Part shown: positions 7,282-32,130 of the stretch, piece after piece | Layout of the letters: each line of letters begins with the position of its first letter | Numbering within the stretch: the first letter of the stretch is position 1 | Made by a program: the position numbers and the translations under genes | Notes under the pieces: model-generated | Databases searched by the model: none | What the model saw: the letters and a program-made list of their open reading frames with translations, nothing else | Told to the model about the DNA's origin: nothing | Origin: Gammaproteobacteria bacterium | GTDB lineage: Bacteria; Pseudomonadota; Gammaproteobacteria; SZUA-229 | Reading direction: 5' to 3' | Assembly (NCBI GenBank): GCA_029881795.1 | Contig: JAOULX010000011.1 | Coordinates: 41,083-105,082 of the forward strand | Length of the DNA: 64,000 nucleotides

Positions 7282-10104
7282 TTAACAAATCAGGTCTTCA
7301 ATAGTCTTTAGTAATGTCGAGTTTTTTACAGGCTTTCTTAAAAAAGCACGTATACCTATTTCTTTGGCGCTCTTTTCATCGATGTGTTCGCTAAAGCCTG
7401 TACAGAGAATGATGGGTAGTTCGGGTCTGATAGATAATATTTCTTGTGACACTTCTTTGCCAGTAAGGTTGGGCATGGTCTGGTCGGTGATGACGGCATC
7501 AAAGTTGTTAGGTGATGCTTTAAAGGCAGCTAAAGCAAGTTGGCTGTTATCAAAGAGAGCAACCTCATAGTCTTTTGATGTAAATACGGCTTCAAGTAAA
7601 TTTAAAATATTTTTTTCATCGTCAATAATTAAAATACGTCTGTTGCCAGTATGTATTTTAGATTTATTTTCTGCTTGCTGAATTCCTGGGGTGTCAGTCG
7701 CCGCAGGTGCTGATGTAATTGGGATGAATAAACTGAAAATGGTTTGACCGGGTTCTGTTTTAACTTGTATGTGCCCGTCATGGTCATGTGTGATGCCGTG
7801 GACCATTGCCAGGCCCATGCCAGTTCCTTTGTTGACGTCTTTTGTGGTCATAAAGGGCTCAAAAATTCGACTGAAGTCCTGTTCTGGAATGCCAGTGCCC
7901 GTATCTTCAATTGAAAATTCTATATAGTCTCCACTGAACTTATGGTGGCAGGCATCGCATAACTGGTTATTAACCGGGAGGCGTTTTACGTTGATGATAA
8001 GATGCCCCTGTTGATTCATTGCATCTTTTGCGTTAATACAAAGGTTAACAAGGCATTGTTGCATCATGACGGCGTCAATTAGTATTGCTGGTAAGTCGCT
8101 TTCGATATTTGTTTCTAAGCTAATGCTTGTTGGGATCATGGGCCTCAACATGCTGACGAGTTCTTTTACAAAGTTATCAATATCGATAACAGCGGCGTCA
8201 CTTTTATTGATGCGAGAATAAGCCAGTAATTTTTGAATCAGGACGCGAGCATTTTCTCCAGAAGTACTGATTGTATTCAAATAGCTTAATAGCTCTTCGT
8301 CATTGAATTTTAGTTTGACTCTTTCTGATGCTAAATCAGTGAATCCGAGTACGCTGTTAAGCATGTTGTTGAAATCGTGAGCAATACCCCCGGTTAACTG
8401 GCCAATTGATTCCATTTTTTGTGCTTGTTGTAATTGGTTTAGCAGGTCTTTTTGGCGCTGTTCATGCTGTTTTTGTTTGCGCATGTCTCTGCCAGATCCC
8501 GCCAATCCGAGCAGGTTACCTTGCGCGTCTTGAATGCGGGCGCCGTTAAAGTAATAAGGGACGATACCATCAGTTGTTATTAAACCGGCTTCGACTTCTG
8601 CCTGACCGCTCTCTAAAGTGTTTTTAATGGCCAATGAAATGGCTTCATGGTCGTCTTTTGCGATCACGTCAAGTGCATGCAGGTTGCCAATTTGATCGGG
8701 TTGTTTACCGGTAACTCGGCTAAAGGTCTCGTTCCACCAGACAATATTGCCGTCAGTGTTTAGACGATACATTACATCGGGTACGGTCGATGTAACGGTT
8801 TCGTATTGTTTGACGACATTGGCCAGGTGTTTTTGTAATGTATGCTGTTCTGTTATGTCCCAAAAAAAACCCAGTACACCGATGAGTTGTTTGTTTTCAT
8901 CGTAAACGGGTGTTTTAACGGTGTTGATGTACCCTTTTTCACTGTTTTCATTTTGATATGTTTCGATAAAGGTAAGTGTTTCGCCTTTGTTGATGACTTC
9001 CTGATCGCCTTGTTGATAAAGTCTGGCGTTATGAGGAAACAGTTCGTTGTCACTCTTGCCGCTTATCTCATGACTGTCGAGTCCAATCTCGTCTGCAAAG
9101 CGTTGATTGCAGGAAATATAGACTGAATTAGTGTCTTTCAAAAATATACTTTCAGGCAGGTTCTCAATCAGTGTTCTGTATTTGTGTTCATTTTTTTCGA
9201 GCGCAAGATTCGCTTTGCGCATACTTCTGGTATAGCCCCAAAGTCCTAGTGAAATAGCAATGAGTAATGCTGTCAGAACAGCAATGCCGGTAATCAGAAA
9301 TACTTCATTCTTTGTGAATCCGGATAAGACGCGTTTACCAAACCACTTGTCATATATGAGTTGATATTTGCCGTTTTTTTTAATTTTTTCGATGCCGGTA
9401 TTTAACTGTTTTAATAAAGTTATGTTGCCTTTTTTTACTGTCATTGACCAGCTGAGTTTTCGCAATGGGTCACCAGTGACTTTTATGTTTCTTTCCAGAT
9501 GTAGTTTTTGCGCTAAAAACAGAATGATTTGCTCGGGATAAATAAATGCATCGGCATGACCATTAATTAGCGCAATTAAGCCTTCTGCAGGCGTGTTTAC
9601 TAAGTAGCAGTCAATTTCTTTAAATTTTTTCAGGTAAATGTGAGTTATGTGGCGATTTACACAAGCTACTTTTAGTCCTGATAAATCACTGATGGAGTGA
9701 ATATTGTATTGTTGGTCACGAACAAAAATGGATTCCGGCATTTCAATAATGGGCTGCGAAAAATCCATTGTTTTAGTCCGCTCAATTGTGTAGCCGGTAT
9801 CGTGAATCAGGTCTGCTTTACCTGAATCTAGCCAGCTGAGTACAGTAGGCCAGCTGCTGCTATGAATATGTGTGGCAGTGATACCCATTTCAAGCATAAC
9901 CGCATCTGCTATTTCAGAAGCAAAGCCTGTTAGCTCACCCTGATCGTTTAGTAGATTGATAGGTGGAAAGTTATTTGATGAGGCAATCACCACTACCGCT
10001 TTGGGAGCCGATGTTATGGTCTTTATGTTTTCCTCAGCCAGAACAGGTGAGAGAAAAATAAGAGTAAGGCAAATAGAGCGCAAACTTTTTTGAGAAAGCG
10101 TCAT
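7282..10104 (-). CDS. Hybrid sensor histidine kinase / response regulator with periplasmic solute-binding (Venus-flytrap, SBP_bac_3-like) sensor, TM, 2 PAS, HisKA, HATPase and C-terminal REC
   Basis: 940 aa with signal peptide. The periplasmic region resembles amino-acid-binding proteins. The histidine box HDFNNMLNSVLGF, G-boxes and a C-terminal receiver (RILIIDDEKNILNLL...) are present. Confidence 0.8.
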   Translation of the reverse strand: MTLSQKSLRSICLTLIFLSPVLAEENIKTITSAPKAVVVIASSNNFPPINLLNDQGELTGFASEIADAVMLEMGITATHIHSSSWPTVLSWLDSGKADLIHDTGYTIERTKTMDFSQPIIEMPESIFVRDQQYNIHSISDLSGLKVACVNRHITHIYLKKFKEIDCYLVNTPAEGLIALINGHADAFIYPEQIILFLAQKLHLERNIKVTGDPLRKLSWSMTVKKGNITLLKQLNTGIEKIKKNGKYQLIYDKWFGKRVLSGFTKNEVFLITGIAVLTALLIAISLGLWGYTRSMRKANLALEKNEHKYRTLIENLPESIFLKDTNSVYISCNQRFADEIGLDSHEISGKSDNELFPHNARLYQQGDQEVINKGETLTFIETYQNENSEKGYINTVKTPVYDENKQLIGVLGFFWDITEQHTLQKHLANVVKQYETVTSTVPDVMYRLNTDGNIVWWNETFSRVTGKQPDQIGNLHALDVIAKDDHEAISLAIKNTLESGQAEVEAGLITTDGIVPYYFNGARIQDAQGNLLGLAGSGRDMRKQKQHEQRQKDLLNQLQQAQKMESIGQLTGGIAHDFNNMLNSVLGFTDLASERVKLKFNDEELLSYLNTISTSGENARVLIQKLLAYSRINKSDAAVIDIDNFVKELVSMLRPMIPTSISLETNIESDLPAILIDAVMMQQCLVNLCINAKDAMNQQGHLIINVKRLPVNNQLCDACHHKFSGDYIEFSIEDTGTGIPEQDFSRIFEPFMTTKDVNKGTGMGLAMVHGITHDHDGHIQVKTEPGQTIFSLFIPITSAPAATDTPGIQQAENKSKIHTGNRRILIIDDEKNILNLLEAVFTSKDYEVALFDNSQLALAAFKASPNNFDAVITDQTMPNLTGKEVSQEILSIRPELPIILCTGFSEHIDEKSAKEIGIRAFLRKPVKNSTLLKTIEDLIC

Positions 10105-10819: not shown

Positions 10820-11446
10820 TCAGGTTTTTTTCTCGCCGATTTTTTCTTCTGCGCCTGATGTCAGCTTTTGAATATTGCTTCGGTGTCTCCAGAATAACAT
10901 TAGCGTTAAAATGGCTGACATGATAATTAATGGTTGAGCCTCATTGATCTTCCAGATTAAAAAAGGCGCACAGAATGAAGCGATAAGAGCAGACAGGTAT
11001 GATGTTCTGAAGGTGGCGGCGGTGAATAACCAGATGCCAATCACGCTTAAACCGATGCGTCAATCCAGTGCAAGATAAACACCGAGTGCGGTTGCGACAC
11101 CTTTACCGCCTTTGAATTTTAAAAACACCGGGTATAAGTGGCCGATAAAGGCAGCAAATGCAACCAGAGCCAGCACGTTATAATCAACAGCCAAATAGAT
11201 GGCGATTAATACCGGTAACACGCCCTTGAACATGTCGCCAATTAAGGTGATGATAGCGGCTTTTTTACCGGCGTTGCGTAATACATTGGTAGCACCGGGA
11301 TTTTTCGAGCCACTAAGGCGCGGGTCTTCAAGGCCCATTAATTTACAGGTAATCACGGCGCTCGATACCGAACCAATGAGATAAGCTGCAACGATCAGTG
11401 CCCAGCTTTTGGGGTCGTTAATACCTAATGCAATAAAAGAGTCCAT
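10820..11446 (-). pseudogene. Diverged duplicate of plsY (G3P acyltransferase) with in-frame TGG->TGA nonsense codon at 11060-11062
   Basis: N-terminal 128 aa are about 97% identical to intact PlsY (14492-15118). TGA replaces the Trp codon (ALDW->ALD*), and the remainder continues in frame (RIGLSV...) with about 80% identity. Nucleotide identity to the intact copy is about 88-90%. Confidence 0.75.
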
Positions 11447-12134
11447 GAAAAACCTTAAATCTGAAAATAATCACGCTAGCATACACCAGGAACGTCAAAA
11501 GGTGCAGTGTGTGTTTGTGCATGGCTGGGGTATGAACAGTGCGGTCTGGGATTCATTGATTAACAAGTTGCCAGATTATTTTGAGCCTGTTTGCATTGAT
11601 TTTCCCGGGCATGGCCAGTTCAACCAACTCGGCTTTGAAAGCTTACAAAATCTGGTTGATCATTTGCTGCAACAGTCGGCTAGTACTCTGTCAGGCCCGG
11701 CCATCTGGGTAGGCTGGTCACTGGGCGCGTTATCGGTATTAGAGTTCAGTTTCAGTGGGCTGAAAACCTTCGCCTTAAATACCATGCAAAAATCTGATGG
11801 CAGTGAGCAGTCAAAAGCCGATATCGCGCTGGCCTTTGAAGAGGCTGTGGTCGATACCTTAATGATTAAATCACGCCGCGCAATCCGTGAGACCGGTATA
11901 AAAACGCTGGTGATAGCTGGCGGAGTGGGAGCCAATCAGCGCTTGCGTCGTGAGTTATCGTCCATGGCAGAAAAAGAAGGTGGCCAGTTGTATTATCCAC
12001 GGGTTGAATTTTGCACCGACAATGGCGCGATGATCGCCTATGCCGGTTGCCTGCGATTGCAGGCAGGACAAACCGAAGATATAAAAATAAATGTTCGGGC
12101 ACGCTGGCCGATGGAGGAGTTGGTGAGCTTGTAG
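11445..12134 (+). pseudogene. Chimeric ORF: N-terminal about 100 aa of a BioH paralog fused in frame to the last 131 aa of TsaD
   Basis: Residues to ...[12 protein letters not shown] resemble BioH (about 80% to 15117-15944). From EFSFSGLKT... the sequence equals the TsaD C-terminus. Nucleotides 11785-12131 are essentially identical to 5967-6306. The junction sits at GTTAG microhomology. Confidence 0.75.
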
Positions 12135-12563
12135 ATTTTAATTTTAAAATCAAATGAATGGATAAGCAGCAGCGAGTGATCCTGCTCTGCTAGTTATATA
12201 GTAAGTTATGATTATCTGATTTGGCTATATAGAACTTTGTAGGTAATCTAAGCGGATGGCGAGGCTGTTTTATTACAGCCAAAAACGTACCCTAAAAGGC
12301 TGTGTTAACATTCTTTACCCTGACGGCTGGCGCTTTTGTATGAGCATTCCTGTTCAAGAAACCTAATTTGTCATCCATCACGAATCAATCCCTTTGGAAC
12401 AGTGCGCGGTAAACTGTGAAAAAGGAAGGTGAATCAAAACCGATATAAACTAATTTTTTTTGACGAGAGATTTTTATTTATAGATTGGTTCTTTCTACTT
12501 TTCGAGGTCGATGGAATATAATCGTCATCAGATTTATCCTACAGTCTTTATGGAAATCTCTGA

Positions 12564-14491: not shown

Positions 14492-15118
14492 TTAAGAATT
14501 CTTTTTGCCAATTCTTTCTTCAGCGCCTGATATTAAATTCTGAATATTACTGCGGTGTCTCCAGAATAACATTAGCGTTAAAACCGCAGACATAATAATT
14601 AAAGGCTGGTTGCTGCTGATTTGCCAGATTAAAAAAGGTGCACAGAATGAAGCGATAAGAGCAGACAGTGATGATGTTCTGAAGATGGCGGCGGTTAATA
14701 ACCAGATGACAATCACGGCTAAACCGATGCGCCAGTCCAGCGCCAGATAAACACCGAGTGCAGTGGCAACGCCTTTACCGCCTTTGAATTTCAAAAACAC
14801 CGGGTATAGGTGGCCGATAAAGGCAGCAAAGGCTACCAGTGCCAGTACGTTATAATCAACGCCTAAATAAATCGCGACCAGTACCGGCAGTACGCCCTTG
14901 AACATGTCGCCTATTAAGGTGATGATAGCGGCTTTTTTACCGGCGTTGCGTAAGACGTTGGTGGCGCCGGGGTTTTTCGAGCCGCTAAGGCGCGGGTCTT
15001 CAAGGCCCATTAATTTACAGGTAATGACTGCGCTCGATATAGAGCCAATGAGATAAGCCGCGACGATCAGTCCCCAGCTTTTGGGGTCGTTAATACCTAA
15101 TGCTATAAAAGAGTCCAT
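14492..15118 (-). CDS. plsY: Glycerol-3-phosphate acyltransferase PlsY (intact copy)
   Basis: Start at [15 protein letters not shown]... by comparison with the paralog and PlsY family. [28 protein letters not shown] is a conserved motif. The ORF-track N-terminal extension to 15250 is spurious. Confidence 0.85.
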   Translation of the reverse strand: MDSFIALGINDPKSWGLIVAAYLIGSISSAVITCKLMGLEDPRLSGSKNPGATNVLRNAGKKAAIITLIGDMFKGVLPVLVAIYLGVDYNVLALVAFAAFIGHLYPVFLKFKGGKGVATALGVYLALDWRIGLAVIVIWLLTAAIFRTSSLSALIASFCAPFLIWQISSNQPLIIMSAVLTLMLFWRHRSNIQNLISGAEERIGKKNS

Positions 15119-15944
15119 GAAAAACCTTACATCTGAAAATAATCCCGCTAGCATACACCATGATGAGACGCAGGGGCAGTATGCCAAAGTACAATGTGTC
15201 TTTGTGCATGGTTGGGGAATGAACAGTGCGGTGTGGGACTCTTTTATCAATCAGTTACCGGATTTTATTGAGCCGCTTTGCATTGATTTGCCTGGCCATG
15301 GCCAGTTCAACCAGCTGGGCTTTGAAAGCTTACAGGATCTGGTTGATCATTTGCTGCTGCACGCTGACAAGCGCCTGACAGGCCCAGCGATCTGGGTTGG
15401 CTGGTCGCTGGGGGCGTTGCCGGTGTTAGCGCTGGCGCGGCAACAGCCTGAAAAAGTCAGGGCACTTTGTTTGCTGGCCAGTAACCCCTGTTTTGTGGTC
15501 AGAGCCGACTGGCAAGCGGCGGTTGAAGAATCGGTGTTTGACTTGTTTGCTGATAACCTGCAGCAAAACATAGAGAAAACATTGCAGCGCTTTTTAAGCC
15601 TTCAGGTTCGAGGTATGGCAGAGTCTCGCGATGTGTTGCGTTTGTTACGGGCGGCGATTGTGGGACAGGGTTTGCCCTCTTCGGCAGCTTTGGCAAGCGG
15701 CTTGGCTGTTTTAAAATCGACTGATTTGCGAGCAACGCTGGGTGCGCTGGCGGTGCCACAGTATTGGTTGCTGGGTGAGCATGACAGCCTGGTGCCGGCA
15801 GCCTTAAATGATTATTTAGGTGTTCAAGCAGGTGTCAAATCACATATCATAGATGGCGCGGCACATCTGCCTTTTGTTTCTCACCCCGAAGACGTTATGC
15901 AACAACTACTCTCAATTATCGATGTAAACCGTATCCATGATTAA
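15117..15944 (+). CDS. bioH: Pimeloyl-ACP methyl ester carboxylesterase (alpha/beta hydrolase)
   Basis: [13 protein letters not shown]...[11 protein letters not shown]...LLASNPCF match E. coli BioH and it is followed by bioC. Start uncertain: ATG 15117 overlaps the plsY start as CATG; ORF-track start 15081 overlaps plsY by 38 nt. Confidence 0.8.
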   Translation: MKNLTSENNPASIHHDETQGQYAKVQCVFVHGWGMNSAVWDSFINQLPDFIEPLCIDLPGHGQFNQLGFESLQDLVDHLLLHADKRLTGPAIWVGWSLGALPVLALARQQPEKVRALCLLASNPCFVVRADWQAAVEESVFDLFADNLQQNIEKTLQRFLSLQVRGMAESRDVLRLLRAAIVGQGLPSSAALASGLAVLKSTDLRATLGALAVPQYWLLGEHDSLVPAALNDYLGVQAGVKSHIIDGAAHLPFVSHPEDVMQQLLSIIDVNRIHD

Positions 15945-26680: not shown

Positions 26681-27574
26681 TTAGGCTTCCAGCATGCCGC
26701 TGCGAAGTTTCTTCAGGGCATTGCTTTCAAGCTGACGGATACGCTCTGCAGAGACCCCGTATTTTTCCGCCAAGTCTTGTAAAGTGGCTTTGTCGTCATT
26801 CAGCCAGCGTTGTTGCAGAATATCCTGACTGCGTTCATCTAAAGTCGTTAATGACGCAGTTAACTGACTGATCTGATTTTGTTCCCAGTCAACCGACTCG
26901 GCCGCATTAGCCGGATCCATGTTGTGGCTGGTCAGGTAAGTAGATGGTGACAGATGAGAATCTTCACTGTCTTCACTGGTCGGTGCGTCAAAAGCGACGT
27001 CATAGTTATTCAGACGTGCTTCCATTTCTAATACGGTCTCAGGTTTTACACCGAGGGTTTCAGCCACATCCTTAACTTCGTCCTGATTAAACCAGCCCAG
27101 ACGTTTTTTCGATGAGCGCAATTTGAAAAACAGTTTGCGTTGTGGCTTGGTGGTCGCAATTTTAACGATGCGCCAGTTACGGATAACGAATTCGTGAATT
27201 TCAGCACGAATCCAGTGTACAGCGAAGGAAACCAGACGGACGTTGTGAGAGCTATCAAAGCGTTTTACGGCTTTCATCAGGCCAATATTTCCTTCCTGAA
27301 TTAAGTCCGCCAGAGGCAGGCCATAACCGGTGTAGCCGCGCGCAATACGCACAACAAAACGCAAGTTGGATAAAACCAGTTTTTGTGCTGATTCAATATC
27401 GCCCTGTTGCTGCAGTCGGTCACTTAATTCGCGCTCTTCTTCGGCGCTTAACATGGGTATATTGTTGATATCGCTGAAATAGCTACCCAGATCGTTGGTG
27501 ACGACAGGTAAAACTGTTTGCGCTGGTATCAATGCTGTACTCATTGTTATTACTCCTCGTAAATCTATGAACAT
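26681..27574 (-). CDS. rpoH: RNA polymerase sigma-32 factor
   Basis: 297 aa; the RpoH box QRKLFFNLRK-like segment ([17 protein letters not shown]), regions 2 and 4, and position adjacent to ftsX. Confidence 0.9.
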
Positions 27575-27684: not shown

Positions 27685-28482
27685 CTATTTTATCAGATTG
27701 CTGATTCGGGCGATGAGCAGGCTTTCTATCAGCGGTTTTTCGATAATATCATTTGCCCCGGCAGAAATAATATTATTGATATGGGAGTTGCGGTCTGGGC
27801 TGGGGGAGGTGGATACCAGAATAGGCAGCTGATCGGGCATTAGGCCAAGCCCGAAACGGATCTCACGAATTAAGTCATCGCCGCTCATCAGGCCCTCAAT
27901 TTGAATATCGGTGAGTACGATATCAAAGCGTTGATTGGTATTGTCAGGGTCCTGGGTCATCGCCAGTAAGGTCAGGGCGTCGGCGGCATTATTCACATGC
28001 TGGTAGCTAAAGCCGTTATTCTCCAGCATATTCGTTACTACCCGGGTAACGGTGGGGCTGTCTTCGACGAACAAAACATGACAGCCGGGGGCTTTATTCC
28101 ATGAGCGTAATGAAAGATAGGACTGGATATACTCGATCAGCTGATCGTTGCCACGGGATTTATCAAAGTAACCGTTAATATGCGGTGATGCGGTGTCATT
28201 CTTAATATTGAGGCTAAAATCACCGGACATCATGATAATCGGAGTATGGCTATCAGCATGATTCTTTCGGAATATTTCGGCAAACTCCTGGGCCTGCATA
28301 TCCGGTAAGCTCATAGCGGTAATAACCAGATCAAAAGAGCAGCTCTGACAGTGTTCCAGAGCTGCTCCAGCAGTATCAAAATCGCTGAGTCTGGCGGAAC
28401 TTAGCTGTTGCTGAATGGTCTTTGAAATAATCGCGCGGCTGGCCTTGGAGCCGTCGATTAATAAAATAGAATGCTCAGTCAT
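27685..28482 (-). CDS. Stand-alone tandem receiver protein (REC-REC); first receiver apparently lacks the phospho-acceptor Asp
   Basis: 265 aa. Domain 1 has ...FDLVITAMSLPDM with Ala at the acceptor position. Domain 2 has ...FDIVLTDIQIEGL...IIEKPL with canonical Asp and Lys. There is no output domain. Confidence 0.6.
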   Translation of the reverse strand: MTEHSILLIDGSKASRAIISKTIQQQLSSARLSDFDTAGAALEHCQSCSFDLVITAMSLPDMQAQEFAEIFRKNHADSHTPIIMMSGDFSLNIKNDTASPHINGYFDKSRGNDQLIEYIQSYLSLRSWNKAPGCHVLFVEDSPTVTRVVTNMLENNGFSYQHVNNAADALTLLAMTQDPDNTNQRFDIVLTDIQIEGLMSGDDLIREIRFGLGLMPDQLPILVSTSPSPDRNSHINNIISAGANDIIEKPLIESLLIARISNLIK

Positions 28483-28619: not shown

Positions 28620-29582
28620 CTATGTTGGTTCAATTTTACTTAGCTGTCGTCCTACTGCCAGCCAGCTGCCTGCTAAACTTAGCAGACAACTGGTGAAAAG
28701 TAAGATCACTGAATTATCGAAACTCAGGCCAATCAGTTCAAAATCACTGTTGTATAAGCGTGACAGTTTTTGTACCGGTGACGCCAGCAAGAACAGCGCG
28801 ATATTGGTCATCAGCAGTGCCAGAATACTGCCAGCCAGCCCGTACCATAAACCGGTATACAGAAAGGGCCGGCGAATAAAGGCATTAGTGGCACCGATTA
28901 ATTTTGTTACCACGATTTCTTCTTTGCGGTTTTGAATATCGAGACGAATGGTATTACCGACTGTCAGTACTACGGCAACTCCAAGCAGAATGCTGATGAT
29001 CCAGACCGCGCGGCTGGCAATTTCTAACATGCTATAAAGCCGTTTTACCCACTCCAGATCGAGCTGAGCAATATCGACTTCCGGCAGGTTTTTCATTTCG
29101 TTCAGTAGCTGGGAGGCCTGCAAGGGATTATGGTTATTTATAATCGGCTGAATCACAATCACCGCTGGTAACGGGTTTTTGTCGAGTGAATTTAAGGCAT
29201 CTCCAAATCCGGAAATTCGAATAAAATCCTCTAGCGCCTGATCCGGGCTGATGACTCGGGTGCTTTCAATATCATTTCGCAGGTTCAGGCGATGCGCCAG
29301 CTGATCGACTGTTTTCATCGTTACCCGGTCTTTGATAAACAATGACATTTGAGACGAGCTGTCCCAGTCTGCGCTGACCTGATGTACATTGTGCAGCAAC
29401 AAATACATGCCGGCGGGCAGCGCCAGCGCAATAGCAATCACCGTCATGGTCATCATGCTGGCGATAGGGCGACGTGTGAGTTCGCCTAAACTGGAAAGAA
29501 AAACACGTACATGATGGATGAAATAAGCCTTTAAAGGTGCGTTTTTTTGCAGTTTGACGCCGCGCTCAGGAGTTTTAGCCAT
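28620..29582 (-). CDS. ftsX: Cell division ABC transporter permease
   Basis: 320 aa, 4 TM, follows ftsE with overlapping stop/start. Confidence 0.85.
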   Translation of the reverse strand: MAKTPERGVKLQKNAPLKAYFIHHVRVFLSSLGELTRRPIASMMTMTVIAIALALPAGMYLLLHNVHQVSADWDSSSQMSLFIKDRVTMKTVDQLAHRLNLRNDIESTRVISPDQALEDFIRISGFGDALNSLDKNPLPAVIVIQPIINNHNPLQASQLLNEMKNLPEVDIAQLDLEWVKRLYSMLEIASRAVWIISILLGVAVVLTVGNTIRLDIQNRKEEIVVTKLIGATNAFIRRPFLYTGLWYGLAGSILALLMTNIALFLLASPVQKLSRLYNSDFELIGLSFDNSVILLFTSCLLSLAGSWLAVGRQLSKIEPT

Positions 29583-30262
29583 CAGCTTATCGCCCTTGAC
29601 GTTAAGTCATTACGTATCAGCTGACCATCATCCAGTGAAATCACCGGGTAACCCATTTCGTCAATTAAGTTGAGGTCATGGCTGGCAATCAAGACGGAAA
29701 CACCAACCTGATTAAAACGCTCAAATAAGTGCATAATTTCTTTAGATAAATCCGGGTCAAGGTTACCGGTGGGCTCGTCTGCCAGTAATAACGGTGGTTT
29801 ATGGACAATGGCGCGGGCAATGCCAACGCGCTGTTGTTCACCGCCGGATAAGGTAATTGGCATGGCCTTTTCTTTATTTAATAAATCGACCTGATCGAGT
29901 GCTGCGCGGACCCGTTTGCTGATTTCCTGGTGTCGAAAACCGGCGATGATTAATGGCATGGCGACGTTCTGGTACACGGTGCGGTCATTCAGCAGTTGAT
30001 GGTTCTGAAAAATAATGCCGATATTGCGGCGGATGTACGGAATCTTATGTTTGCCAATCTGATTCAGGTTGACTCCATCGAGAAAAACCTGGCCACGGCT
30101 GGGCCGCTCTATCATTGCGATCAGTTTTAGCAAGGTGCTTTTACCGGCTCCTGAATGGCCGGTTAAATAAGCCATTTGGCCGCGTGGCAGATGGTAGTTA
30201 ACACCTAGCAAGGCTTCAAAGCCGCCCGGGTATTGTTTACTGACATTATCAAAACGGATCAT
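29582..30262 (-). CDS. ftsE: Cell division ABC transporter ATPase
   Basis: 226 aa; Walker [10 protein letters not shown], signature LSGGEQQRV, Walker [13 protein letters not shown]. Confidence 0.9.
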
Positions 30263-30439
30263 GAATTCCCCATTTGGTCCGTGTGAATCGTTATCGTTAT
30301 TCTGACTAGTGTGCCATAAATGGTGATATTTTTCATGGCAGAATTAATTGGCTTGAAACTTGGTGTGGTGGTAGCTGAAAATTTAAAAATCATGCTTCTA
30401 TCATTTTATGGCAAGGTGTGAGTGTTTTCATCGTAGATA

Positions 30440-31110
30440 CATTGCCGGTAGTCGCACCGGCGAGCGAGGCATTTTTTCCTACAGCTGAAAAAGTACCGTA
30501 CTTGCGTGTGTAGGTGACACGTTAATTAATAGCGCGATAGCGCGCATACTATCTAATGAAAGCCGCCCTAACCCAGTTTGCCCTGCGGGTTCCCATGCCT
30601 TGTAAATACAGTCACTATCAAACTATGTACTGTAATAGTGATAGCCTCTCTAACGGGTCATTTTCATTCGCATCCCTCGGTAACCGCTCCTGCGTTACTC
30701 TACCTCCTGCATCCATGCAGTCGTGCTCAAGAAAACTTAATCTGCCGTCCATGGCAGATTATCCCTTTCTAGAAACAATGCATGGCAAACTGCGAGACGG
30801 GAGCAATAATTAAAAACAGATAGTAACTACTAGATTTTAGTCCTTTTTATTTTCTTTTGAATTCGACTTTGACTCACCGCTCCCCATTTAAGCAAGCCGA
30901 GGAAGGCGTAATATGGACGGGGCTTTCTGCGAGGATGTTTGAGTGAATGGTGTTTTTTATCATTCACGAGTTCCGCAGCAGCCGTCGATATTTCGACTGA
31001 CGAGGGAACCCTTATGCTTTTTATAAGGGATTGGTTAACGGGGCGGCTTTCTTTTCGTTAGTTTTCTGTAGCTGTAGACAGAAAAGTGACCTGCTGTCGG
31101 TCAGCCACCG
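30440..31110. repeat. Copy B of the ORF-less hairpin-rich mosaic repeat element, inserted between ftsE and ftsY
   Basis: X module is reverse-complemented at 30672-30730 (CTGCATCCATGCAG). Y module is direct at 30832-30985, and W module direct at 30960-31095. It has TIR-like ends GAAAGCCGCCC (30558-30568) / GGGCGGCTTTC (31042-31052). Hairpin CCCTTAT-GCTTTTT-ATAAGGG at 31010-31030 is a compensatory variant of the copy A hairpin. Confidence 0.55.
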
Positions 31111-31149
31111 ACGCTGTTGACGTTGACTTTGGTTTTATAAAAAACAAAC

Positions 31150-32130
31150 TCAATCTGGCTGATGATCCAGTAACGCATTAACAAACTCTTCTGCATTAAA
31201 CTCGCGTAAATCCTCAATGCCTTCACCGACACCAATATAACGAATAGGCAAGCCGAGTTTTTGGGAAATCGCCAACAAAATACCGCCTTTTGCTGTGCCA
31301 TCGAGCTTGGTTACCGTTAGTCCGGTTACATTCATGGCCTGATGGAACTGCTCAGCCTGAATCAGGCCGTTTTGACCAAAGCCTGCATCGATTACCAGCA
31401 TAACTTCGTGTGGCGCGGACTCGTCGAGTCGGGCCATCACCCGGCGAATTTTTACCAGCTCTTGCATCAGGTTGCTTTGCGTGTGCAGACGCCCTGCTGT
31501 ATCGGCAATTACGATATCAATACCTTTGGCTTGTGCAGACTGTACCGCGTCGAAGATGACAGAAGCAGAGTCTGCTCCTGTGCCTTGTGCGATAACCGCT
31601 ACCTCGTTGCGCTCACCCCAGGTTTTAAGTTGTTCGACGGCTGCAGCGCGGAAGGTGTCGCCGGCCGCGAGCATGACGGATTTTCCCTGATTTTGAAAAC
31701 GTTTGGCCAGCTTGCCGATGGTGGTGGTTTTACCAGCACCGTTGATGCCCACTACCAGTATTACAAAAGGCTGATTGGTGTCAGTTTGCAGGGCTTGTTG
31801 AGCCGGTTTCAGCAGTTCAATCATATCGCTTGAGAGACACTGCATTAGCGCTTCTGGGTTGTTCATTTCTTTGCGTGAAAGCCGCTTGCTCAGATCGGCG
31901 ATAATTTTCTGGGTGACCTCTATACCGACGTCGGCGCTGAGCAGACGGGTTTCCAGTTGTTCCAGAATATCCTCATCGATGGCTTTTGAACCGAGCAGAA
32001 TATCGGCTAAACCGTCAGTAAATCCGCGACGTGATTTGGTGATTGACTGATGCAGTGTTTTTTCAGGCTGTGATGCAGCAGGGGCGGCTGAAGCGTTTGT
32101 TTTTTTGTTTCGTTTTAGAAAACCGAACAT
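31150..32130 (-). CDS. ftsY: Signal recognition particle receptor
   Basis: 326 aa; NG domain GVNGAGKTTTIGKLA, DTAGR, TKLDGTAKGG motifs. Confidence 0.9.
   Translation of the reverse strand: MFGFLKRNKKTNASAAPAASQPEKTLHQSITKSRRGFTDGLADILLGSKAIDEDILEQLETRLLSADVGIEVTQKIIADLSKRLSRKEMNNPEALMQCLSSDMIELLKPAQQALQTDTNQPFVILVVGINGAGKTTTIGKLAKRFQNQGKSVMLAAGDTFRAAAVEQLKTWGERNEVAVIAQGTGADSASVIFDAVQSAQAKGIDIVIADTAGRLHTQSNLMQELVKIRRVMARLDESAPHEVMLVIDAGFGQNGLIQAEQFHQAMNVTGLTVTKLDGTAKGGILLAISQKLGLPIRYIGVGEGIEDLREFNAEEFVNALLDHQPD

Follow-up and report, generated by a model that had tools for sequence, protein, structure and literature searches.

Dispersed repeats such as the Correia elements of Neisseria, enterobacterial repetitive intergenic consensus (ERIC) sequences, bcr1 of the Bacillus cereus group and miniature inverted-repeat transposable elements (MITEs) are non-coding, multi-copy sequences of a few hundred nucleotides that lie between genes, have RNA structure and carry inverted repeats. 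The same traits are found in the 887-bp spacer (30263-31149) between ftsY and ftsE on contig JAOULX010000011.1 (assembly GCA_029881795.1) of a gammaproteobacterium, of which a stretch of 64,000 nucleotides, the window, was analysed. Compared with these elements, however, the spacer has no terminal inverted repeats at its true unit ends and no target duplication. It holds two RNA units at a single locus, its loci are conserved across species, and its pairing has been maintained by compensatory changes over long divergence. The spacer probably harbors a divergent pair of small non-coding RNA genes that belong to a lineage-specific, modular, multi-copy family. One unit (YW) is on the + strand and the other (Z) on the - strand.

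For Z, the nearest described relatives are the TwoAYGGAY RNAs, which were first reported from the human gut, Gammaproteobacteria and Clostridiales (PMC2864571) and have been proposed to act as CsrA-sequestering small RNAs (sRNAs) (PMC4333381). Rfam places this family (RF01731) in clan CL00106 (Csr-Rsm binding). Z shares its AUGGAC and AGGGAU loops, long closing helix, non-cis-regulatory location and occurrence in Gammaproteobacteria, and one copy exceeds the gathering score. However, most copies, including that of the window, fall below this threshold at 30-38 bits. Z also differs in having an extra 3' module of ~100 nt that is common to YW, in being multi-copy with a divergent RNA partner and, in the window copy, in carrying two insertions. 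Like CsrB, CsrC and RsmX/Y/Z, the units studied here present GGA in hairpin loops, grow by addition of GGA hairpins and occur as several paralogues per genome, but they have only ~1.6-2.3 GGA per 100 nt and a far more elaborate fold.

The flanking genes keep the order of an E. coli-type ftsYEX operon with rpoH, that is, ftsY, ftsE, ftsX and then rpoH. The window differs from this arrangement by a REC-domain gene between ftsX and rpoH, and ftsY and ftsE are ~370-900 bp apart in every relative with a measurable spacer. Over the 21 kb compared, the window differs by a single mismatch from part of a 66-kb metagenome contig (ENA ERZ27296342, k141_1929816).

Structured units in the ftsY-ftsE spacer

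An initial annotation had described a multi-copy mosaic non-coding element that fills the ftsY-ftsE gap, and this description holds: the sequence of the spacer (locus B) is repeated at 6.3-7.1 kb (locus A). Repeat finding and BLAST against locus A match 30667-30730 to 6396-6333 (inverted, 89%), 30808-31136 to 6794-7108 (direct, 67.6% over 333 nt, E 1e-33) and 30972-31121 to 6612-6460 (inverted, 86.9%, E 1e-39). These repeats are genuine and far above chance. Locus A carries two YW units of ~260 nt back to back, A1 and A2, and locus B carries one. A1 is a variant that keeps helix P1 and the 3' half of YW around an inner 5' domain that is different and longer; four of the other loci compared (L028, L045, L048 and L064) have this variant too.

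Read from its 5' end, the spacer copy YW_B consists of a CCCC tract, a closing helix CAAGC/GCUUG, the long-range helix P1, the invariant CUGCGAGGAUGUYUGAG ... GAGUUCCGCAGCAGCC, two hairpins and the 3' module W. The string CCGCAGCAGCC is invariant in all YW copies. Already in an initial alignment of seven copies, drawn from the window and from four orthologous loci, helices change in sequence while they keep their pairing (for example ATTTCTGTGG/CCACAGAAAT versus ATTAATGTGG/CCACATTAAT versus CAAGGTGG/CCACCTTG). The RNAalifold consensus for 55 distinct copies has 46 pairs in nine helices, and 95.9% of the corresponding alignment cells are paired, compared with 44-49% when the partners are slid by 1-3 columns. 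Compensatory changes affect 30 of the 46 pairs (409 cells), and the observed values were reached in none of 500 shuffles. Because G-U combinations outnumber A-C combinations 312 to 28, the structure is assigned to the YW strand. The minimum free energy of YW_B is -88.6 kcal/mol on the + strand (z = -3.36) and -67.4 on the - strand. Searches of Rfam return no family for YW at E values up to 10, HEARO included.

Part of the YW core follows a k-turn-like pattern, in which CUGCG(A)GGA pairs with UUCCGCAG next to a UGUYU bulge, tandem GA/GA (55 of 55 copies) and a covarying helix, P5. This likeness is read from the sequence pattern alone: the bulge has 4-5 nt, not the 3 of a k-turn, and the CUGCG-A-GGA/UUCCGCAG helix is invariant, which makes covariation uninformative for it. 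YW, with one invariant GAGGAUG, folds more elaborately than known sponges, and it may bind a protein or a ligand. In two copies from different genomes (L009 and L027), 50 nt are inserted between the closing helix and GGGGCGGC (alignment A3, columns 203-252).

Other identities for YW were rejected. A small peptide (MDGAFCEDV in copy B, MSDFCGAFCEDV in A2) would start at an ATG within the covarying P1, and in L004 this ATG is not in frame. Since the lengths of hairpin loops do not vary in multiples of three, YW has no conserved open reading frame (ORF). AGCAGCC near ftsY had suggested a signal recognition particle (SRP) RNA, but Rfam gives no match and the copies are scattered. A hammerhead-like core is contradicted by CUGAG-stem-YGAG, which is unlike CUGANGA ... 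GAAA, and again by the lack of an Rfam match. A literature search with the invariant sequences returned unrelated primers only.

W, the 3' module common to YW and Z, comprises GGGGCGGCUUU, a U-rich stretch, a hairpin and a final hairpin. In YW_B these are represented by GGGGCGGCUUUC, the hairpin UUUUCUGU/ACAGAAAA, a second hairpin at 31096-31112 and a U-rich tail. The two W modules of the spacer form an inverted repeat because Z and YW diverge. What had been interpreted as MITE-like terminal repeats is GGGCGGCUUUC, which is part of both W modules and internal to the units. The left 11-mer, GAAAGCCGCCC, is at 30558-30568 as first reported, whereas its complement on the right occupies 31041-31051, one base off the reported 31042-31052. 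Allowing up to one mismatch, the 11-mer motif has four occurrences in the window where 1.1 are expected, and no shuffle out of 100 reached four. Both 11-mers belong to the internal GGGGCGGCUUU motif. Homology to other copies continues for more than 100 nt past the left one, and homology to copy A for 70-85 bp, more than the 45 bp first estimated, past the right one.

Z_B, the Z copy in the spacer, is closed by the helix CUGUUUGCC/GGCAAACAG and has two hairpins, the first with AUGGAC and the second with AGGGAU in its loop, and a W module that ends in a hairpin at 30461-30444. In another clade the closing helix is replaced by GCAGUUUAC/GUAAACUGC. The RNAalifold fold of 15 Z copies has 46 pairs, of which 11 show compensatory changes, with 29 G-U against 2 A-C combinations. 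The loop of the first hairpin is AUGGAC, AUGGAU or AGGGAU, and that of the second is AGGGAU, one deviation from AYGGAY; the GGA of both loops is invariant in 14-15 of the 15 copies. Scores against RF01731, for which the gathering score is 43, are 29.9 bits for the window copy, where the match is interrupted by an insertion (module X), 37.1 for L017, 37.7 for L068 and 43.6 for L043. GGA occurs 1.6 times per 100 nt in YW, 1.7 times in Z and ~2.3 times in Z_B with module X, over a window background of 0.96. Only Z, above all with X, looks like a CsrA ligand, and it may titrate this protein. No GacA/UvrY box was recognised upstream of the units.

Module X had been listed as an inverted module of the mosaic element. 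The repeat is real, but in locus B it is a 47-nt insertion within Z_B that is missing from the 14 other aligned Z copies. It provides the hairpins CUGCA-UGGA-UGCAG and GUAAC-GCAGGAGCG-GUUAC, and three GGA motifs result. A copy that is 98% identical is present at L025:4232-4291. Matches of 88-90% over 49 nt also occur in unannotated intergenic DNA of Pseudoalteromonas chromids, and these include a compensatory change in the second hairpin. The Pseudoalteromonas element (L192, P. donghaensis NZ_CP032091.1 363393-363441, and five other Pseudoalteromonas chromids) has two hairpins CUGCAUGGAUGCAGGAGGUAGAGCAAUGCAGGAGCAAUUGC within a GUGUUCU/AGAACAC stem. It lies between convergent genes at 1-5 places per replicon, has no Rfam match and may be an undescribed GGA-loop sRNA of Alteromonadales. 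Separately, 37 nt of X match the coding sequence of pglX, a bacteriophage exclusion (BREX) gene, at 94.6% on plasmids of Moellerella (NZ_CP093250.1 127705-127741) and Salmonella (NZ_CP133280.1 11617-11653). This match is probably coincidental.

A second insertion of ~55-59 nt, which includes the palindrome GCGCGCTATCGCGC, splits the 3' module of Z_B, such that GGGCGGCTTTC is parted from the remaining W; a terminator-like site at 30545-30532 lies within this insertion. Sequence from the 3' end of Z_B and beyond (30378-30468) matches 11019-11109 of L002 at 79.8% (BLAST), where it forms the outer arm of an inverted repeat. A third locus in the window, C, holds a shorter Z-like unit that shares the 5' box (TATCGGTTTTGATTCACC) and has GGA hairpins; it lies immediately downstream of a duplicated tsaD fragment.

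The 5' box directly abuts the first paired bases of YW, and the same box precedes Z units; it is a candidate promoter element or 5' leader. The region between the divergent units contains a sigma-70-like site (TTCAAA-16-TAAAAT, 30861 down to 30834 on the - strand, promoter scan) that could drive Z, and RTCAAA ... TAARAT is semi-conserved in other Z copies when alignment A4 is inspected by eye. Readings of the 5' box as a sigma-70, sigma-54, FliA, sigma-E or T7-like promoter, made by eye and by promoter scan, do not fit. CCCCATTTA was also rejected as a sigma-32 promoter: no -35 element is present at 13-17 nt, its CCCC is predicted to pair with a 3'-side GGGG, and its distance from TTTGAY is not the same in all clades. 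Both A1 and A2 finish in a terminator-like hairpin with a U-rich tail, and the unit at B has a weaker end of this kind.

Table 1. Location of the units, their parts and the flanking genes in the window
Feature	Position	Strand	Basis or remark
YW_B structured RNA unit	30882-31136	+	Alignments, RNAalifold; nhmmer match 30864-31141
5' box TTTGACTCAC, family consensus TTTTGAYTTAC	30868-30877	+	Upstream alignments
Central region between divergent units	30804-30881	.	Sigma-70-like site inside
Z_B, TwoAYGGAY-like structured RNA	30803 down to 30444	-	Rfam RF01731, 15-copy alignment; nhmmer 30855 down to 30534
Module X	30678-30724	-	47-nt insertion inside Z_B, alignment A4
Second Z_B insertion, ~55-59 nt	~30499-30557	-	Comparison with Z consensus, alignment A4
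Stretch directly past Z_B 3' end	30378-30443	-	Vestigial YW 5' end ACTCACACCTTGCCAT
YW copy A1	6806 down to 6453	-	Convergent with tsaD
YW copy A2	6843-7108	+	nhmmer E 8e-60; terminator-like hairpin 7067-7084
Module X, free-standing copy	6333-6396	+	24 nt past tsaD stop codon
Locus C, shorter Z-like unit	12464 down to 12260	-	nhmmer 12464-12344, E 3e-17
ftsE-proximal conserved region, presumptive ftsE promoter or 5' untranslated region	30263-30340	-	BLAST, MAFFT alignment
ftsY (SRP receptor)	31150-32130	-	Pfam SRP54 and SRP54_N, ORF list
ftsE	29582-30262	-	Pfam ABC_tran
ftsX	28620-29582	-	Pfam
REC-domain gene	27685-28482	-	Pfam
rpoH	26681-27574	-	Pfam

Copies, inversions and deletions in related genomes

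A degenerate pattern built from the invariant YW positions was used to search a collection of one genome per species. It finds 64 exact-motif stretches, nearly all in about a dozen metagenome-assembled genomes of uncultured gammaproteobacteria from marine sediment, cold seep or vent. These genomes carry at least 4-11 exact-motif copies each, on different contigs, and the elements are small, non-coding, dispersed and multi-copy, as MITEs are. Among the matches listed, 78 of at least 120 metagenome loci hold true copies; for 101 long YW hits at these loci, the divergent partner within 250 nt is a second YW in 58 and a Z in 18. Viral contigs and phage records yield no matches to the family.

The units tend to face gene 3' ends. 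Downstream of YW, 49 of 65 copies have a convergent gene, in most cases within 150 nt, and the units are therefore not leader sequences of the genes that follow. Among ORFs within 1.2 kb of copies at ~190 loci there is no recurrent transposase, recombinase, nuclease, TnpB or IscB; the only recurring neighbours are syntenic housekeeping genes and a hybrid kinase. This kinase (SBP_bac_3, PAS, HisKA, HATPase and REC), which resembles the hybrid histidine kinase gene at 7282-10104 that converges with YW A2, is the most frequent YW neighbour (14 loci). It may recur partly because orthologues of one locus were sampled, or because the units are functionally tied to a two-component system.

Eight further fts loci, some of them duplicates of one contig, come from relatives with FtsY proteins that are 82-88% identical. 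The initial annotation had viewed the element as splitting the operon. A recent insertion is not supported: in six of these loci a unit pair occupies this spacer too. The pair comes in three configurations. The window and L002/L036 have YW facing ftsY and Z facing ftsE, L004 and L049 have Z facing ftsY and YW facing ftsE, and L006/L111 and L181 have two YW units. In L002/L036 the layout is that of the window at 66-77% identity, the kind of conserved spacer that had been named in advance as a sign of ancestry. A comparison with empty ftsY-ftsE junctions had also been proposed. Two relatives without a unit, L003 and L173, do exist, but the L003 spacer is still ~370 bp (351-372 bp) of unrelated sequence.

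Between close strains, the unit is seen to invert in place. L008 and L165 have flanks that are 97% identical and a Z-YW unit that is inverted in place between 62-nt inverted W arms, and L040 and L090 show the same pattern. Similarly, the members of the divergent pair in L034 (5684-6273) are swapped relative to tsaD when compared with window 6453-7108, a flip like that at fts. Compared with L021, L052 has lost Z through an imprecise deletion that left the last ~14 nt of W. An automated comparison of strain pairs for filled and empty sites gave no case at strict thresholds, and relaxed inspection yielded one deletion and several inversions. Recombination within W alone is a doubtful cause of inversion: between the window and L004, W moves with its 5' domain. 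Elsewhere, unlike this pair, W types shuffle among 5' domains, and different combinations of the two exist.

Further traces of rearrangement are vestigial YW 5' ends that follow unit 3' ends in the window and in L002. In L046 (387-452) two YW halves meet head to head at the P5 hairpin in a palindromic junction with the look of a recombination product. The last ~405 bp of tsaD and 4 nt past its stop codon are duplicated in the window at 98-99% identity (11734-12139 versus 5909-6313), and the second copy forms an in-frame fusion with the N-terminal portion of an alpha/beta-hydrolase ORF (11409-12134, Pfam Abhydrolase_6 and TsaD). At both loci the duplication stops exactly where unit-related sequence starts, which suggests recombination at unit borders. 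Three collinear direct repeats (83-88%; 10827-11670 versus 14499-15357) mark a duplicated segment of ~850 bp near locus C.

Within some genomes, copies are more than 90% alike. Their similarity fades gradually past the core with no sharp ends, and the target-site duplications that were to be sought once more copies were aligned are absent. Taken together, a recombining gene family fits these patterns better than cut-and-paste transposition.

RNA genes, mobile elements or cis-acting sequences

If the spacer is a pair of RNA genes, the units would be transcribed as independent sRNAs. YW_B would yield a + strand RNA of ~250 nt with a complex fold and a k-turn-like kink, converging on ftsY. Z_B would be transcribed from the - strand toward ftsE, and the insertion of X would have equipped it with two further GGA hairpins. 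Both RNAs would end in W, and units that face away from each other would produce the inverted W repeat that was taken for transposon termini. Duplication, deletion, whole-unit inversion and recombination of modules with one another would have spread and reshuffled the family, all with no dedicated transposase. Units sit next to convergent genes, at their 3' ends, and W may double there as the terminator of the neighbouring gene.

Several observations weigh against this explanation. A convincing conserved YW promoter was not found, and the sole conserved upstream element is TTTTGAYTTAC. In other clades no U tract follows the 3' hairpin, and termination there is unclear. Classical CsrB and RsmZ sponges have a GGA density far above that seen here, and no csrA gene is present in the DNA retrieved. 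The >90% identity of copies within some genomes fits a recent selfish burst as well as gene conversion, and the presence of whole units in both orientations at one locus is explicable by independent insertions.

Much of this could also be accommodated by a non-autonomous mobile element, a foldback or MITE-like cassette that uses W as long imperfect terminal inverted repeats and inserts beside gene 3' ends. RNA structure would then aid propagation or have been co-opted, and the fts copy would be one insertion among many. The high copy number on different contigs, the close similarity of copies within genomes, the two orientations at one locus in related genomes and the unit-less L003 and L173 are all compatible with such a cassette. 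So are the inverted W modules that bound whole units with arms of 62-100 nt, the TTTGAY hexamers at both unit ends in the clade of the window and the preference for terminator-side intergenic regions. We nevertheless regard it as rather unlikely. No transposase, recombinase, TnpB or IscB is found near the ~190 loci, the copies lack sharp termini and target-site duplications, and the sole clean case of presence versus absence is the imprecise deletion that leaves part of W. Moreover, the same loci (fts and tsaD) are occupied across species whose FtsY proteins are 82-88% identical, and the paralogues in the clade of the window are old, with 67-87% identity and pairing kept by compensatory changes. 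A specific version, in which TTGAT/TTAC-like flanks mark an IS200/IS605 palindrome-associated transposable element or an omega RNA, was rejected since no TnpA, TnpB or IscB lies near these loci; unlike IS200/IS605-type ends, the YW 5' end has no hairpin that resembles the 3' one.

The position of the units next to gene 3' ends, together with the terminator-like hairpin and T run that W forms on the ftsY strand (31103-31087), is what would be expected of elements in 3' untranslated regions that terminate transcription or stabilise mRNA instead of being RNA genes in their own right, akin to repetitive extragenic palindromic (REP) sequences, bacterial interspersed mosaic elements (BIMEs) or ERIC. 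This is improbable: the strand that forms the structure is antisense to the adjacent gene, its complement would contain mismatches (312 versus 28), a multi-helix fold of ~250 nt with invariant junction nucleotides exceeds what a terminator needs, and the units form divergent pairs around a central spacer. Still more remote is that YW acts in cis as a leader or riboswitch of the downstream gene, which would be ftsE where YW points that way. Three loci (L004, L006 and L049) do have YW in the sense orientation 93-107 nt upstream of ftsE, and the complexity of the fold and its k-turn-like motif are riboswitch-like. However, the downstream gene is convergent in the majority of copies counted above, all three window YW copies face gene 3' ends, and no gene class is consistently downstream. 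Independent RNA genes account best for these observations.

Gene context and implications for the family

The 3' end of YW_B converges on ftsY, whose stop codon is ~14-37 nt away. On the other side of the spacer, the ~75 nt directly 5' of ftsE are kept in all unit-carrying relatives and partly in unit-less L003 (MAFFT alignment), which suggests a proximal control region that belongs to ftsE itself. The initial annotation had held that ftsE must be transcribed from within, or through, the element. Z does point toward ftsE and the last Z_B hairpin lacks a U tract, so read-through is conceivable. The conserved ~75 nt argue against dependence on the element, and ftsE would retain this region and be expressed independently. 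An 85-aa ORF within the spacer (30556-30813) matches no Pfam family.

As a structured RNA family, YW would be well supported and without an equivalent in Rfam. Through its location and its shared 3' module, this family appears to be tied to the TwoAYGGAY RNAs, which have been proposed as CsrA sponges. More tentatively, and with less confidence than we place in the RNA gene pair itself, YW may represent an undescribed class of complex-fold bacterial RNA that, with its TwoAYGGAY-type partner, forms protein-free, invertible and recombining cassettes in at least 10 copies per genome. If this were true, the YW-Z cassettes would constitute either an unusually large modular arsenal of CsrA-type RNAs or a self-propagating element with RNA as its sole product.

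The units provide concrete candidates for assays of CsrA binding and for mapping of marine-sediment metatranscriptomes. For annotation, they imply that long 'empty' spacers in textbook operons of uncultured bacteria may be loci of RNA genes and not the scars of transposons. In this family, regulatory RNA genes would evolve as shuffled modules, made up of 5' domains, GGA-hairpin inserts and 3' modules, and would flip in place between close strains.

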